A stretch of 64,000 bases of DNA from an uncultured bacterium (GCA_964246695.1 CAXTSI010000002.1:2690-66689); one strand, 5' to 3'. Shown: positions 25,309 to 46,499, numbered from the stretch's first letter. The notes: generated by a model from the sequence alone, not told the origin. Made by a program: numbers and translations.

Positions 25309-26265
25309 ATGCAAATTGACCACGACCAACTCTTCAAAGAACTTTTGTCCACGTTTTTCGTCGAATTCATCGAGTTATTCCTACCAGAAGTAGCTAGCTA
25401 CCTTGAGCGTGAATCAATCACCTTTTTGCAGCAAGAGTATTTTACTGACCTGATAACTGGAGAGCGCAAAATTATCGATTTGCTGGCACTGGTAAAGTTT
25501 CGCGGACAACAGACTTGCTTTATTATTCATGTAGAAAATCAGTCTTATACTGAATCGGATTTTGCACGAAGAATGTTCTTCTATTTTGCCAAGCTACATC
25601 AAGAATATTTGCTACCTATCTATCCGGTGGTGGTATTTTCTTTTGATGAACCAAAACGAGCCGAACCCAGGCAGTATCAGGTAGAGTTCTCAAATTTAAA
25701 GGTACTGGAATTTAACTTTACCGCAATTCAATTGAATCAGCTGAACTGGCGAGATTTTCTACAACAGCAAAACCCGGTAGCAGCGGCATTGATGGTGAGT
25801 CCAGTGCTGAAGGCGGGTTTCCCGCCGTAGGCAACTGGCGAACCCGAAGGGCAAAAATGCAAATTGCGCCACAGGATCGTCCCAAAGTAAAGGCAGAGTG
25901 TTTGCGATTACTAGCAACGCTACGACTAGATCCGGCACGGACACAGTTAATATCAGGGTTTGTGGATACATACTTGCGATTAAATGCAACAGAGGAACAG
26001 GTTTTTGGGCGTGAGCTTGATAGCATGGGTTTAATAGAGGAGGAACAAGTTATGGAAATTGTCACCAGTTGGATGGAAACTGGAATGCAACGGGGAACAC
26101 AAAAGCTGGTGCTGCGGCTTTTAAATCGTCGGTTGGGAACACTTGAACCATCGCTCTTGCAGCGTGTGAGTGAATTACCATTGGAACAATTGGAGGCTTT
26201 GGGCGAGGATTTACTAGACTTCACACAAATATCAGATTTAGTGAATTGGTTGAATCAACCTGGAG
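25309..26265 (+). pseudogene. Rpn-family recombination-promoting nuclease / putative transposase (PD-(D/E)XK plus DUF4351-like C-terminus), split by a 56-nt insertion
   Basis: 'MQIDHDQLFKELLSTFFVEFIELFLPEV' is the typical N-terminus. The reading frame breaks at 25795..25850 (GC hairpin insert with a TAG) and resumes '...KMQIAPQDRPKVKAECLRLL...LLDFTQISDLVNWL'. Confidence 0.75.
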
Positions 26266-43546: not shown

Positions 43547-43873
43547 TTAGTAGCGGCGAGAGTATCCTCCTCCCCCTCCTCCACTATTGTTTCCTCGTCT
43601 ATCACCACCACCACCAAAGGAACCTCTGTCTTCGCGCGGCTTAGCCTTATTAACCTTGAGGTTACGACCCATCCACTCAGCAGTGTCAAGGGCTTCAATC
43701 GCTGCAGTTTCTTCTGCATCTGTTCCCATTTCTACAAAAGCGAAACCACGCAAACGACCAGTTTCCCGGTCTTTTGGCACTTGAATGCTCTTAACAGTCC
43801 CATATTCTGAGAAGACTTGCTTTAGGTCATCTTCTACAACTTCATAGGAAAGATTACCGACATAAATTGACAT
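43547..43873 (-). CDS. rbp: Glycine-rich RRM-type RNA-binding protein
   Basis: 'MSIYVGNLSYEVVEDDLKQVFSEYGTVKSIQVPKDRETGRLRGFAFVEM' (RNP2/RNP1) plus a 'GGGGDRRGNNSGGGGGGY' tail. An rbp-rpsU linkage is known in Anabaena-type cyanobacteria. Confidence 0.95.
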   Translation of the reverse strand: MSIYVGNLSYEVVEDDLKQVFSEYGTVKSIQVPKDRETGRLRGFAFVEMGTDAEETAAIEALDTAEWMGRNLKVNKAKPREDRGSFGGGGDRRGNNSGGGGGGYSRRY

Positions 43874-44053
43874 AAAAAACATCTCCAGAATCAGATGGTG
43901 TAGAGATTTGGATTCGGAGAGAGGCTTGTAATACAAATAAGCACAAACTGCATAACCGAATATAATCTTCAATGAGTATAACATAAAATTTATCAGCTGT
44001 GCTGACTGCACTACCACTGCCACAATTTTAGAGATGCAATTTTAGATAAACCG

Positions 44054-45778
44054 TTAATTTAAATCTAGGCATAACTGGGTAAACGTAGATATTCCACGCG
44101 CACATCGTTTCCTAGACCTAGACGCGGCAACGGATACCGCGTCATTACCCGTTGGAATCACACCAACCTCAAAAAGCTCCAATTGGACTGGATTGCCTGA
44201 CAGTCCATGCTTGCCCACAGAGTGGACAAGCTGACCGCCAAGCTTAACCTTTTGCGTCCTGTTAGGACGGGCAGTGTAATATTGGTGTCTCGGAGTGCCT
44301 TTGACACTCTTACTCACTTTACTCCAGTGCGACCAAACGTGCTTCACCTTAGTTTTTTCGGCGTAGGCGGACATGTCACTACGTAAATGATGTTGATTTG
44401 GGATTCTTTCTGAGAATCTTCGACCACGACGCGCTATGACGAACGCTGCCGAGGATGACGAATTCATGCCATACATAGACATGAATTTCATCAAACCTAC
44501 TAAACTGCTAAAAGCCGCCTCAACTTTCTTGTGATAAATACCGTGTTTTTGGCAAGCATATAAGAGCGCGTCATTCCACTGACTGTAGGCGAAAGAAGAT
44601 AGCATACGAGCATACTTCTTGCCTTTTTCTTTAAGTTGCTCCTTTTTACCGGAAAAGTCTAATTTTTCTGAGACTATGGGGAAATTGTACTGTTTAGCTT
44701 TAAAGGCAATGAAAGTGGCAGCATCACTAAGAATTGCTGATCGTTGATTAGAATTTTTGGAATGAAGGTCGATTTTGTAATCACCAAATTCCAGTAAATT
44801 ACCTTGGGCATCGCATACAGCCCACCCAACAGAGTCCGCATTCAAATCAATGCCAACGTAACCGGAAAGGTACTCTGAGGTAATTTCAGGTAAGTTAACG
44901 TCTGTCGTTGCCGCAATATACCAACCATCATTTTTCCAATAAAAGCGGAGTGTTACAGCACTGCACCCAATTGCCCATTTTTCGTTCTTATCTTTGGTTC
45001 GTACTTTATAACAACGCTCCGAAATAGCTTCAATAATTTCGTGTTTCCCGTGCTTGAAGTTTAAACTATCAATACGAATGTATTGACCTCCTAGCCTTTC
45101 TTCTAAAGCGTAGGGAGTGCGAATAGAAAGGACAAACTTATCAGTGCTTTCAATGTAATCAAACTGCGCTAACTGGTTGCCGGAGGATTCATCCTTACTG
45201 CCAACAAGCATGAAGCCGTTAGCATCAGGTAAAACATAATTAGGTACGGTGCAAGTGAGGTGTTTAAGCTTGTTTTCTAATAAGCTTAACCTCCGTTTCT
45301 TTTGGTGTAAACCAAATTTAGCGTCCTGGAGTTCTGTTGTCTGGCGTTGTTTTGCATAAAGATTACAAGCTTTTTTGATTTTTAGTTTTATAGCTGAAAA
45401 GCCTTTCAAATCGCGCTTTGATTTTTCCTTATTATCCTGAAGTACAAAATCTTTAATCTGCTTTTCACGCTTTCTGATGTCAGATCTGATTGATTTAATC
45501 TGACCTTCTAGCACTTTGATATGGTTAGCTCTATTTTCATTAATATTGGATACAATTGCTTGCACCTCTGTGTAAATAGAGTTAGCCCACCGCTTGTTGA
45601 TATTAAACTTAGCTTGTAATTGCTTGTTACATTCAAGCTTACTCTTACCACTAATAATCAACTCAAGGCAGTAGTGACGAGCCGAGTCAACCAAGTTAAA
45701 AAGAGCAAACAACTCTCCCCAATGCCAAAATTCTATTTGGTCTGTATAAGTTTTAGTTGACTCCGCCACGTTTATCAC
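44054..45778 (-). CDS. TnpB-related (IS200/IS605 OrfB-like, RuvC-fold) protein lacking a zinc ribbon and the third catalytic acidic residue
   Basis: 574 aa. 'YVGIDLNADSVGWAV' (RuvC-I-like). 'FPIVSEKLDFSGKK' (RuvC-II-like). 'VEAAFSSLVG' stands where TnpB has TSQxCxxCG. 'NSSSSAAFVIARRG' stands where TnpB has D.NAA.NI. There is no CxxC pair in the last 170 aa, and there is a basic tail of about 120 aa. Confidence 0.6.
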   Translation of the reverse strand: MINVAESTKTYTDQIEFWHWGELFALFNLVDSARHYCLELIISGKSKLECNKQLQAKFNINKRWANSIYTEVQAIVSNINENRANHIKVLEGQIKSIRSDIRKREKQIKDFVLQDNKEKSKRDLKGFSAIKLKIKKACNLYAKQRQTTELQDAKFGLHQKKRRLSLLENKLKHLTCTVPNYVLPDANGFMLVGSKDESSGNQLAQFDYIESTDKFVLSIRTPYALEERLGGQYIRIDSLNFKHGKHEIIEAISERCYKVRTKDKNEKWAIGCSAVTLRFYWKNDGWYIAATTDVNLPEITSEYLSGYVGIDLNADSVGWAVCDAQGNLLEFGDYKIDLHSKNSNQRSAILSDAATFIAFKAKQYNFPIVSEKLDFSGKKEQLKEKGKKYARMLSSFAYSQWNDALLYACQKHGIYHKKVEAAFSSLVGLMKFMSMYGMNSSSSAAFVIARRGRRFSERIPNQHHLRSDMSAYAEKTKVKHVWSHWSKVSKSVKGTPRHQYYTARPNRTQKVKLGGQLVHSVGKHGLSGNPVQLELFEVGVIPTGNDAVSVAASRSRKRCARGISTFTQLCLDLN

Positions 45779-45865
45779 CTCCCGTGCAATGTTTTATCTG
45801 TATAATCTATATTATAAGTCTCAGTTGTGAGACTGTCAACAATTAATTAAGAACAAACTAAAAAA

Positions 45866-46078
45866 ATGCCTACACCTGAATGGAGACAAAGAAACGCTCA
45901 CAAGAACAGACAGTATTCCGCAAAGTATAATCAAAACAACACGGTTGTTACTGTCGTCCTTAAGCCGTGGGTTGTTGAAGAGGTAAACAAAATCAAAGAC
46001 ACGTCTGAATCGTATGGAGGATGGGTTAGAAAGCAGATAGAAGCCATTGCAGAAAAGCAAAGACTTGATGCGGAGTAA
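45866..46078 (+). CDS. Small protein, possibly a ribbon-helix-helix DNA-binding protein, divergent from the TnpB-related gene
   Basis: 70 aa. 'NTVVTVVLKPWVVEEVNKIKDTSESYGGWVRKQIEAIAEKQ' has a strand-helix-helix pattern. A good hairpin (ATATCTATGTAG-N5-CTGCATAGATAT) follows at about 46104. Confidence 0.45.
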   Translation: MPTPEWRQRNAHKNRQYSAKYNQNNTVVTVVLKPWVVEEVNKIKDTSESYGGWVRKQIEAIAEKQRLDAE

Positions 46079-46499
46079 TCTTTAAGCAGTCAAACAGCTA
46101 ATATCTATGTAGTAAAAAAAGTTCTGCATAGATATACCAAGATATTAGCAAGCAGCAGTTAACCCCACGCGGCAAGCCATAATAAGCGACCTCTCCACGC
46201 CCAACGGGAAAGCCAGTTCCCTGGGCGCGGGAAACAAGCTGCAAGGACTGGACTCACCAGTCGCCTAGGTCGGTGCCAGTGCGCCTATACGGGTAACGCG
46301 ATCGCAGGATAAGAGCGTTGGAGACACTCGTGTCGGCGCTTACGCTCCCCAACCCCTCCCCTAATAGGGGAGGGGAGACTTTGACGCAAGTCAAAGGCGG
46401 GTTGAAGGTAAGACCTAAATGATAAGTCATTTACCGAGCATGATATAATAAACCAAAGTTTTGTGTTTGATGGTATGCAATTAGACATAAAATTGTGAC

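Follow-up and report, generated by a model that had tools for sequence, protein, structure and literature searches.

The locus described here raises the question of whether a TnpB-like gene just upstream of a cold-shock-type rbp-rpsU operon serves that operon as an RNA-guided regulator, or belongs to a mobile element that landed there. The window, i.e., the whole 64,000-nucleotide stretch of DNA from an uncultured bacterium that was analyzed, encodes a TnpB-like protein of 574 aa on the minus strand (44054..45778), though the true start may be the second GTG at 45769. A divergent ORF of 70 aa follows on the plus strand (45866..46078) across an intergenic gap of 87 bp. The rbp ATG at 43873 lies 180 nt past the stop codon of the 574-aa ORF. 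A first-pass annotation proposed that the two genes were either a domesticated regulator of rbp-rpsU or a new kind of two-gene mobile element. The ORF coordinates, spacing and motifs it gave all check out, and its range of 43874-46140 needs adjustment, leaving out the last 26 bp of the left end of the element and taking in 176 bp of flank. We suggest, with a probability of roughly 0.8, that positions 44050..46166 represent a non-autonomous copy of an IS607-family insertion sequence with a TnpB of the RIIIr-4 type, an embedded omegaRNA scaffold and a small ORF replacing tnpA.

The two ORFs together form a discrete mobile unit of about 2117 bp on the minus strand (44050..46166, boundaries ±2 nt). 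Sequence similarity in blastn ends at 44049-44051 in all 15 loci on the right, and at 46165-46167 on the left in L002, L004, L009 and L015. DNA outside these boundaries is unrelated between copies and each copy has its own flanks. In all, 15-20 copies were compared; they come from filamentous cyanobacteria, including genomes of Scytonema, Stigonema, Calothrix and Aetokthonos. One Stigonema MAG carries four loci, Scytonema NUACC26 carries three, and Scytonema UIC 10036 has at least seven intact paralogues that are 78-89% identical. The L004 locus is a contig of 2112 bp containing nothing but the element, with a coverage of 145 according to the contig name. Decayed and interrupted copies were found as well, and many sister copies are truncated. 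Multiple copies with base-sharp ends and unrelated flanks show that the element is mobile, and present-day mobility of the single copy in the window is putative.

The element junctions read flank/GGGGTTAAC...TTAACGG/flank and are sharp in 15 or more copies, with no terminal inverted repeats. The right-end motif TTTAAATTAACGG(T) (44050..44062, minus strand) is kept in all 16 copies and doubles as the 3' terminus of the scaffold RNA. The terminal AACGG is common to the right end and the distant His-type element L016/L017 (ACAACGG), and a terminus of the form RRCGG is shared with the L007, L016, L017, L001 and L018 copies. The left end (46101..46166, minus strand) consists of GGGGTTAACTGCTGCTTGCTAATATC and then a subterminal hairpin, ATATCTATGCA...TACATAGATAT (46135..46101). 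This arrangement is kept in L002, L004, L009 and L015, with a compensatory change in the hairpin stem of L004. The left-end flanks of six copies revealed no target-site or TAM consensus beyond a G-run, and the sites where the copies inserted showed no common target. A search for an empty site, in which metagenome contigs were scanned for the exact rbp-side flank, gave no match. The predicted empty-site joint is ...GCCGCGTGG followed by (T)TTATCTAAAATTG....

The first-pass annotation was right that no TnpA is nearby, and the whole 64-kb window has no such gene. Sister elements do encode one. In L007, TnpA lies directly upstream of the TnpB homologue and matches MerR (E 4.7e-16) and Resolvase (E 2.2e-18). 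L016 and L017 are tnpA+tnpB units, 99.8% identical and located in the same 4.4-Mb genome, and L001 has a TnpA remnant with the HTH retained. An upstream ORF of 79 aa in the L018 copy shows only a faint resolvase match (E 0.09), which suggests a further TnpA remnant. Since tnpA is absent from the window copy and present in the siblings L007 and L016/L017, the window copy is, judged by gene content, a non-autonomous IS607-family derivative. The element would therefore be unable to move alone. Mobilization in trans by a sibling TnpA is conjectural, because the likeness between the left end and that of a TnpA-bearing sibling is a short motif only (GGGG..TAACTG). The suggestion of a two-gene mobile element was thus correct as to mobility but not as to novelty: the kind is known, an IS607-family element with a RIIIr-4 TnpB, whose siblings encode a serine transposase.

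An AF2 model of the TnpB-like protein (pLDDT 79, core above 90) matches structures of Cas12f, Cas12e, Cas12k, Cas12m and TnpB with E-values of 1e-8 to 1e-6 over about 500 columns. The model shows that the protein has the bilobed WED-REC-RuvC fold of TnpB/Cas12, in agreement with its initial description as TnpB-related. Weak profile matches to Cas12f chains and to NCBIfam guided_TnpB (NF040570; below cut-off, E 2.7e-10) are consistent with the fold. Pfam, PHROGs and PADLOC returned no match, and a PDB sequence search with the single protein as query returned nothing significant. The RuvC-I and RuvC-II contexts are kept as first described: D311 in GIDLN is present in 244 of 245 relatives and E371 in SEKLDF in all 245. 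Zinc finger and third Asp are likewise missing, as described. The segment FSSLVGLMKFMSMYGMNSSSSAAFVIARRG stands where the zinc finger and RuvC-III block would be, and the window protein has Ser441 at the position of the RuvC-III Asp (D.NAA.NI). The zinc-finger-position segment has a fixed length of 25 aa and is without Cys in 233 of the 245 relatives. Position 441 is occupied among these relatives by His (138), Ala (41), Asp (38), Gly (18) or Ser (10). The protein family comprises about 1,400 clusters at 50% identity and lacks the zinc finger throughout. In the predicted secondary structure, position 441 is at the N-terminus of a helix and an invariant Glu457 (SER.P motif) comes after the C-terminal end of that helix, so that an active-site role for Glu457 as a relocated third catalytic residue seems unlikely. 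The protein core is under strong purifying selection (dN/dS 0.07-0.11). The earlier label of a nuclease-dead protein is putative, given the near-invariant D311 and E371 and the selection on the core.

The protein matches the already published TnpB clade RIIIr-4, which lacks the C4 zinc finger and has His in place of the RuvC-III Asp (Altae-Tran et al. 2023, PNAS, PMC10691335). An hhalign comparison of the family profile with a labelled Nocardiopsis RIIIr-4 protein (ortholog 39) gave a probability of 98.9% (E 2.4e-17, 307 columns). The family of the window protein has no C4 zinc finger, and the RuvC-III His is its consensus (56%) but is Ser in the window protein. Altogether, 107 of the 245 relatives are also without His, and the window protein appears to be a member of a His-less subgroup within the same sequence family. 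The Nocardiopsis RIIIr-4 omegaRNA scaffold ends in ...GGAACGGT (PMC10278001, Supplementary File 2, row 39), and the AACGGT terminus is common to that omegaRNA and the element. The Nocardiopsis dassonvillei RIIIr-4 TnpB yielded a processed 466-nt omegaRNA in vitro, ending ...AACGGT (Nety et al. 2023, PMC10278001). The sole clade member tested so far thus processed its omegaRNA, with dsDNA cleavage absent in a TAM screen (PMC10278001, Supplementary File 2, row 39). The clade was defined by authors who anticipate that activity is retained (PMC10691335). Ser441 cannot stand in for Asp or His as a metal ligand. Given this and the lack of dsDNA cutting by the tested member, the classical role of a homing nuclease may not apply.

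An alternative reading, which we consider unlikely, takes the protein for an RNA-guided DNA binder and not a nuclease, assisting the serine transposase in target choice, homing or retention without cutting. The third RuvC position varies freely (His/Ala/Asp/Gly/Ser) in proteins with a core under strong purifying selection, and L007, with an intact TnpA, also has a core under selection and Ala at that position. The family-wide absence of the zinc-finger/TNB module for substrate loading, as well as RNA processing without dsDNA cleavage by the tested clade member, point in the same direction. The near-invariance of D311 and E371 suggests, however, that a catalytic role is kept, at least in RNA processing, and a common target is not evident at the insertion sites. 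A broader version would hold that the TnpBs of the zinc-finger-less clade without even His (Ser/Ala/Gly) are no DNA nucleases, and are RNA-guided DNA binders serving a serine-recombinase transposon otherwise, e.g., by marking the site (donor or target) or holding on to it. Asp and Glu would then be kept only for omegaRNA processing, and the 70-aa protein would have taken the place of tnpA as a repressor or antitoxin dedicated to the element. We regard this generalization as improbable too.

The RNA component is encoded within the TnpB-like gene. An omegaRNA-like structured scaffold (44050..44390, minus strand) lies wholly inside the last ~115 codons (~340 nt) and ends at the right end of the element. 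Across aa 460-574, synonymous divergence drops from about 0.5 to about 0.2, and amino-acid divergence climbs. The consensus RNA structure has 95 pairs with 94.9% of cells paired, and 39 pairs show compensatory changes compared to 16.1±2.5 in shuffles and 8-15 in slid controls. The sense strand folds with -127.8 kcal/mol (z -5.2), compared to a z of -1.2 for the antisense strand. When built from the 3' 132 nt, a covariance model picks out a relative of 37% identity, at the end of the relative's gene (E 1.6e-7), and no Rfam family matches the region. Covariation and strand-specific folding stability show a sense-strand RNA structure ending at the element boundary, like an omegaRNA. The proposed overlap of an RNA scaffold with the 3' end of the gene is thereby borne out computationally. 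The odd basic tail of the protein (residues 461-574), which is disordered in the model, is explained by a reading frame that runs across the RNA scaffold. Two hairpins had been singled out in this region. The hairpin GACGCGG-N9-CCGCGTC (44121..44143) covaries and corresponds to helix 14. GGACTG-N10-CAGTCC (44185..44206) is present in the window copy but unconserved, and the same bases are part of a longer covarying hairpin (helices 9/10) in the family.

By analogy with TnpB systems, the RNA would be made and bound by the TnpB-like protein. The first ~20 nt transcribed beyond the right end (44030..44049, minus strand) are the predicted guide-encoding flank outside the element, as expected from the TnpB/omegaRNA architecture, and may act as a guide. 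The predicted guide sequence is unique within the window, and the equivalent positions differ in every copy. Transcription continuing into the flank would give a copy-specific guide, given that the scaffold stops precisely at the right end. The element indicates that an omegaRNA can sit wholly within a reading frame.

The 70-aa ORF stands in the position of tnpA and has only five relatives among 5.8 billion proteins, all from the same lineage. The ORF is under purifying selection (dN/dS 0.07-0.19, five copies). No match was found in Pfam, PDB, PHROG or PADLOC, a profile search against PDB and Pfam was also empty, and the AF2 model is poor (pLDDT 54). The protein may be RHH-like ("strand-helix-helix"), judging by sequence pattern only. 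The TnpB-like gene has the promoter TTGACA-17-TATAAT (45811..45839, minus strand; 12/12 matches in a promoter scan), which is kept in L002, L009 and L004. The operator-like palindrome GTCTCA-N4-TGAGAC (45818..45833, minus strand), already recognized in the first reading, falls within the spacer of this perfect promoter. The dyad symmetry is preserved in sister copies through paired changes, e.g., GTCTAA-N4-TTAGAC in L002. The small protein is probably a DNA-binding repressor because its ORF faces a consensus promoter with a palindrome in the spacer. L006 carries a different small ORF, unrelated to the first, in this divergent position, and it matches RHH_1 weakly (E 0.019). In this family, tnpA can apparently give way to a small regulator-like gene. 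A census of homologs recovered multiple copies with conserved ends but no constant pairing with the small ORF, as most members have TnpA or nothing.

The two genes might constitute a toxin-antitoxin-like addiction module on the element, with TnpB and omegaRNA as the toxin and the small protein as antitoxin or repressor. Such a proposal was made for archaeal RHH/MazE-TnpB pairs within RIIIr-4 (PMC10691335), and this precedent is joined by the pairing of the small ORF with the TnpB gene in five copies under purifying selection, the small ORF of L006 in the same divergent position, and the operator-like palindrome inside the tnpB promoter. We nevertheless see only a slim chance that the module operates in this way. 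The genes diverge and form no operon, a partner of this kind is missing from most family members, toxicity needs nuclease activity that is doubtful for a Ser441 protein, and the RHH fold is itself a prediction. The addiction module is compatible with, and not exclusive of, an IS607 element.

The preferred account of a non-autonomous IS607-family element can be summarized as follows. The last ~340 nt of the TnpB gene would double as the omegaRNA scaffold, ending exactly at the right end (...TTAACGG), and read-through past this end would supply a guide specific to each copy. A tnpA of the sister type would have been replaced by the small divergently transcribed ORF. The small protein most likely binds the palindrome in the tnpB promoter spacer and would thereby repress expression of TnpB/omegaRNA as well as its own. 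Transposition would rely on a serine-recombinase TnpA that comes from an autonomous sibling, e.g., L007, and acts in trans, with crossover at the G-rich (GG) junctions found at both ends, GGG on the left and CGG on the right. We doubt that the window copy is an inert relic that has lost its function. The window holds no second copy and no TnpA, and many sisters are truncated, but the two ORFs, the two ends, the consensus promoter and the RNA helices have all stayed intact.

That a domesticated, nuclease-dead TnpB represses or otherwise regulates the adjacent rbp-rpsU in the manner of a TldR, directed by a guide RNA, is largely refuted and very improbable, even though the third RuvC residue is Ser, the zinc finger is missing, the gene points in the same direction as rbp and the predicted guide corresponds to the DNA 157-176 nt ahead of the rbp start codon, given a multi-copy unit with intact transposon ends and unrelated flanks, guide-equivalent positions that vary from copy to copy as a transposon flank would, a transposase in sister copies, no other copy near rbp or rpsU, and a loss of zinc finger and Asp that is a trait of the whole clade of ~1,400 clusters and no local domestication. 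The location of the element 180 nt upstream of rbp-rpsU thus appears incidental, an accident of insertion. The direct repeat noted 8 nt past the stop codon (44023..44032 and 44037..44046) does exist, though as part of the rbp flank and not of the element. A tempting false lead is thereby removed: the gene belongs to a transposon copy that landed by chance, and is no host-domesticated RNA-guided regulator of a cold-shock-type operon.

TldRs are reportedly TnpB-like nuclease-dead repressors associated with fliC and oppF, a description attributed to Wiegand et al. 2024. Like them, the window unit has a protein derived from TnpB, a changed RuvC-III region and, at the 3' end, an RNA resembling an omegaRNA. 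TldRs are immobilized in conserved synteny with the gene that they serve, and carry guides to one fixed promoter, whereas the window unit is mobile and multi-copy with another flank, and thus another predicted guide, in each copy. TnpB loci associated with fliC and oppF are mentioned also by the authors who defined RIIIr-4 (PMC10691335). Cas12k of the type V-K CAST of Scytonema hofmanni shares the cyanobacterial host lineage, a non-canonical RuvC and a TnpB-derived fold (Foldseek match 8ea3_O, E 4.9e-7). The window element differs in having no Tn7-like genes, CRISPR array or tracrRNA and no similarity at the sequence level, and in that its partner transposase would be a serine recombinase. No CRISPR-like direct-repeat arrays are found within ±6 kb, as the first reading had indicated, and adjacent ORFs are unrelated to Tn7-like genes. 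An identity with Cas12k/CAST is ruled out by the lack of Tn7 genes (tnsB/tnsC/tniQ), of an array and of sequence similarity.

A close likeness is to the IS607 family, defined by serine-recombinase TnpA and TnpB (Chen et al. 2018, PMC6188088). Shared features include the absence of terminal inverted repeats, G-rich junctions at both ends, an equal gene order and a size of 2 kb, as well as siblings in which a MerR-HTH and resolvase transposase directly precedes the TnpB gene. The window copy differs by the absence of tnpA and by the opposite-strand 70-aa ORF in its place. With RIIIr-4, the element shares a protein of TnpB fold that lacks the C4 zinc finger between RuvC-II and RuvC-III and has its RuvC-III Asp replaced, an association with serine-recombinase TnpA, and a long omegaRNA overlapping the 3' end with the terminus ...AACGG(T). 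A small RHH/MazE-type gene partners some members of the clade. The published RHH/MazE-TnpB pairs are archaeal, non-mobile and co-directional, with a co-oriented RHH or AbrB gene immediately upstream (PMC10691335), whereas the small partner in the window is divergent, confined to one lineage and part of a mobile bacterial element. The window protein and its close relatives also have Ser (or Ala) where the clade typically has His, and the window ORF has extended across all of the omegaRNA scaffold, stopping 4 nt short of the right end. RIIIr-4 is a large and barely studied clade in which the position replacing the third Asp is not conserved, and the other two catalytic residues are invariant. 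The function of the ribonucleoprotein of this clade is testable, and the well-delimited element of 2.1 kb would provide a convenient test object.

The element occupies about 2117 bp (44050..46166, minus strand) and holds two genes located from the ORF list and the sequence. The long ORF encodes a TnpB-like protein of 574 aa (44054..45778, minus strand) and the small ORF a protein of 70 aa (45866..46078, plus strand), with a gap of 87 bp between them. The RRM-type gene rbp starts at 43873, 180 nt past the stop codon of the long ORF, and is followed by rpsU. Every motif quoted in the first-pass annotation is present in the sequence, but its proposal of a domesticated regulator of rbp-rpsU is contradicted by a mobile, multi-copy unit with sharp ends, unrelated flanks and no synteny. 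A protein search recovered 1,778 relatives of the long protein. The nearest (72-87% identity) are from Scytonema, Stigonema and Tolypothrix, and Scytonema sp. UIC 10036 alone has seven or more intact paralogues. DNA similarity to the window was compared across 14 fetched genomic loci. On the right, similarity ends at most 1-2 bases from 44050 in all fetched loci, and on the left at 46165-46167 in the four loci sharing the small ORF. The right end reads ...CCTAGATTTAAATTAACGG(T), with unrelated DNA beyond it in every copy. The left end is GGGGTTAACTGCTGCTTGCTAATATC, followed by a subterminal hairpin with a compensatory stem change in one copy. One contig of 2112 bp (L004) consists of the element alone, with a coverage of 145 according to the contig name. 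Several copies are truncated, internally deleted or broken by a 56-nt repeat. Neither rbp nor rpsU was found in the DNA fetched around each of the other copies, and the 64-kb window holds just this copy and lacks any transposase gene. The element's place next to rbp-rpsU is thus an insertion accident.

The direct repeat CAATTTTAGA, on the minus strand TCTAAAATTG-CATC-TCTAAAATTG (44023..44046), lies in the upstream flank of rbp, outside the element. An extended -10-like site, TGTTATACT, is found at about 43975..43983 on the upstream side of rbp. The tandem TCTAAAATTG repeat and the TGTTATACT site may be part of the native control region of rbp. A GC-rich hairpin repeat of ~56 nt (GGTGAGTCCAGCCCTGCAGGCGGGTTTCCCGCC...) is dispersed in these cyanobacteria and looks like a small MITE-type repeat (window 25794..25849 and ~46211..46258; L012 882..937; L010 5878..5934; L011 7164..7204). 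A diverged copy adjoins the left end of the window element, and in the L012 locus the repeat splits the loop of a predicted omegaRNA helix.

The module 5' of the long gene varies among copies. Immediately 5' of the long gene in the L007 locus lies a same-strand gene for a 209-aa protein whose MerR-type HTH (E 4.7e-16) is joined to a resolvase catalytic domain (E 2.2e-18). This inverted domain order is typical of IS607 TnpA. One 4.4-Mb genome holds a distant relative (29% identity) in the form of two 99.8%-identical tnpA+tnpB units, which have sharp boundaries and the right end ...ACAACGG. TnpA is reduced to its HTH part in L001, and a 79-aa ORF upstream of the L018 copy, with a faint resolvase match (E 0.09), may be another remnant. 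The divergent 70-aa ORF takes the place of the upstream module in the window, L002, L004, L009 and L015. The 57-aa divergent ORF of L006 is unrelated to it and matches RHH_1 weakly (E 0.019). Element ends adjoin G-runs (GGG left, CGG right) and terminal inverted repeats are absent, which is consistent with IS607 (PMC6188088). Given the sibling IS607 TnpA and the IS607-like ends, the window element is an IS607-family derivative that lacks TnpA. Mobilisation of window-type elements in trans by TnpA is plausible, since L002, with the small ORF, and L007, with TnpA, occur together in one Stigonema MAG. In Scytonema sp. UIC 10036, an element copy directly adjoins a second IS607-like unit, made up of a 197-aa HTH+resolvase TnpA and then a 459-aa PF27142 'Aq_aa04' protein. 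With a 429-aa ORF, they make up a group of elements that are nested or adjacent (L001 6749..10085).

The long gene has a perfect sigma-70-type promoter, TTGACA-17-TATAAT (45839..45811, minus strand), which lies upstream of rbp-rpsU and could read through into that operon. The palindrome GTCTCA-N4-TGAGAC sits in the promoter spacer, and its dyad is kept by paired changes in sister copies. Purifying selection acts on the 70-aa ORF (dN/dS 0.07-0.19), and a search of 5.8 billion proteins turned up only five relatives, each of them from the same cyanobacterial lineage. It has no match in Pfam, PDB, PHROG or PADLOC, and its low-confidence model has no clean strand-helix-helix. An assignment as RHH protein would be a guess from sequence. 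The most economical reading is that the protein would repress the divergent promoters. The first ~28 codons of the long ORF (45695..45778) show low synonymous divergence (0.22 versus ~0.5), which suggests a second nucleotide-level constraint, e.g., a translation initiation region or binding site. Translation may in fact begin at the second GTG (45769), which lies 8 nt downstream of GGGAGG.

The long protein has no match in Pfam and no significant match in a PDB sequence search, and NCBIfam guided_TnpB matches residues 337-425 below threshold (E 2.7e-10, 40 bits, with the cut-off at 100). The fold bears out the annotation as TnpB-related. An AlphaFold2 model built with 91 relatives is confident over residues 1-460 (most 10-residue blocks >90) and disordered over residues 461-574. 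Foldseek matched it to Cas12f, Cas12e, Cas12k, Cas12m, Cas12g and TnpB structures (~500 columns, E 1e-8 to 1e-6, probability 1.0), and its RuvC core also to RuvC resolvases. A profile search of 1.84 billion representatives yielded 4,521 clusters at E<=1e-3, including 1,383 at E<=1e-30. In an alignment of 245 diverse members, D311 (RuvC-I) is kept in 244, and N313 and E371 (RuvC-II) each in all 245. The missing zinc finger and third RuvC Asp, noted earlier for the window protein, extend across the alignment. Position 441, the RuvC-III Asp site, is His in 138 members, Ala in 41, Asp in 38, Gly in 18 and Ser in 10. The zinc-finger segment is always 25 aa long and Cys-free in 233/245. Glu457, in a downstream SER.P motif (window ~44408..44410), is nearly invariant (240/245) in a clade whose canonical third catalytic position varies freely, and may be structural, an RNA contact or catalytic. 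The published TnpB clade RIIIr-4 has the RuvC-III Asp replaced by His and no C4 zinc finger, is linked to serine recombinases, and has some members paired with RHH/MazE genes (PMC10691335). Judged from the alignment, the conservation pattern matches the RIIIr-4 signature, with His the commonest residue at position 441. The family profile also aligned to Nocardiopsis dassonvillei ortholog 39 (Nety et al., PMC10278001), the one RIIIr-4 protein compared (hhalign probability 98.9%, E 2.4e-17). The losses are thus an old clade-wide trait rather than local domestication. A canonical zinc-finger TnpB (L021 913..2208; 431 aa, OrfB_IS605 and Cas12f1-like_TNB domains) sits 2 kb from an Ala441-type member of the family, so both TnpB types coexist in one cyanobacterial genome.

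The window protein is a candidate nuclease-dead protein, as first annotated. At least altered activity is indicated by the absence of the substrate-loading zinc-finger module, and Ser, Ala or Gly cannot stand in for Asp or His as metal ligand. The assayed RIIIr-4 orthologue processed its 466-nt omegaRNA, yet was inactive in a dsDNA TAM screen (PMC10278001). However, the two remaining catalytic residues, D311 and E371, are essentially invariant, and strong purifying selection acts on the protein core (dN/dS 0.07-0.11). A canonical TnpB uses its RuvC site for processing of its omegaRNA as well (PMC10278001). The remaining interest of the element lies in what RIIIr-4 proteins do.

The proposed RNA scaffold overlapping the 3' end of the gene is supported by covariation, a synonymous dip and sense-strand stability. 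Across eight full-length copies, synonymous differences drop from 0.42-0.56 over most of the gene to 0.18-0.28 in residues 460-574, whereas amino-acid differences increase there. Nei-Gojobori estimates are dS 0.36-0.55 and dN/dS 0.4-0.7 for the tail, and dS >=0.8 and dN/dS ~0.1 for the core. The consensus structure of the last 400 nt in 16 copies has 95 pairs, with 94.9% of cells paired and G-U pairs common. Two-sided changes affect 39 pairs, against 16.1+/-2.5 in column shuffles (0/500 reach 39) and 8-15 in controls with the partners displaced by 1-3 columns. Folding is stable in sense (-127.8 kcal/mol, z = -5.2) but not comparably in antisense (z = -1.2), which points to an RNA transcribed from the gene's own strand. 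Of the two annotated hairpins, 44121..44143 corresponds to helix 14 and shows covariation. That at 44185..44206 is present in the window but copy-specific, its bases belonging to a longer covarying family hairpin. A covariance model built on the final 132 nt picks up a 37%-identical relative at its 3' end (E 1.6e-7). A hairpin with a UGNGAUU loop recurs with wholly different stems in a His-type element, where it spans the stop codon. The scaffold terminus is the element boundary, ...AACGG(T), the same terminus as in the experimentally sequenced Nocardiopsis omegaRNA (PMC10278001). In the cyanobacterial subgroup, the reading frame thus grew across the predicted omegaRNA gene nearly to the right end, and this accounts for a tail that is basic, disordered and fast-evolving. 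The flank's first ~20 nt (44049..44030) would serve as guide, by analogy with other TnpB elements; this predicted guide is unique within the window and differs in every copy.

The element is descended from IS607-family insertion sequences with an RIIIr-4 TnpB as cargo, and works in the same way. A TldR-type regulator is ruled out by mobility, lack of synteny and copy-specific flanks, and a Cas12k/CAST relative in the operational sense by the absence of Tn7 genes and of a repeat array within +/-6 kb. Archaeal RHH/MazE-TnpB pairs differ from the element in orientation, mobility and host. The particulars of the window element are modest: Ser in place of His at RuvC-III of the long protein, a predicted omegaRNA wholly within the ORF and a lineage-specific small gene replacing tnpA.
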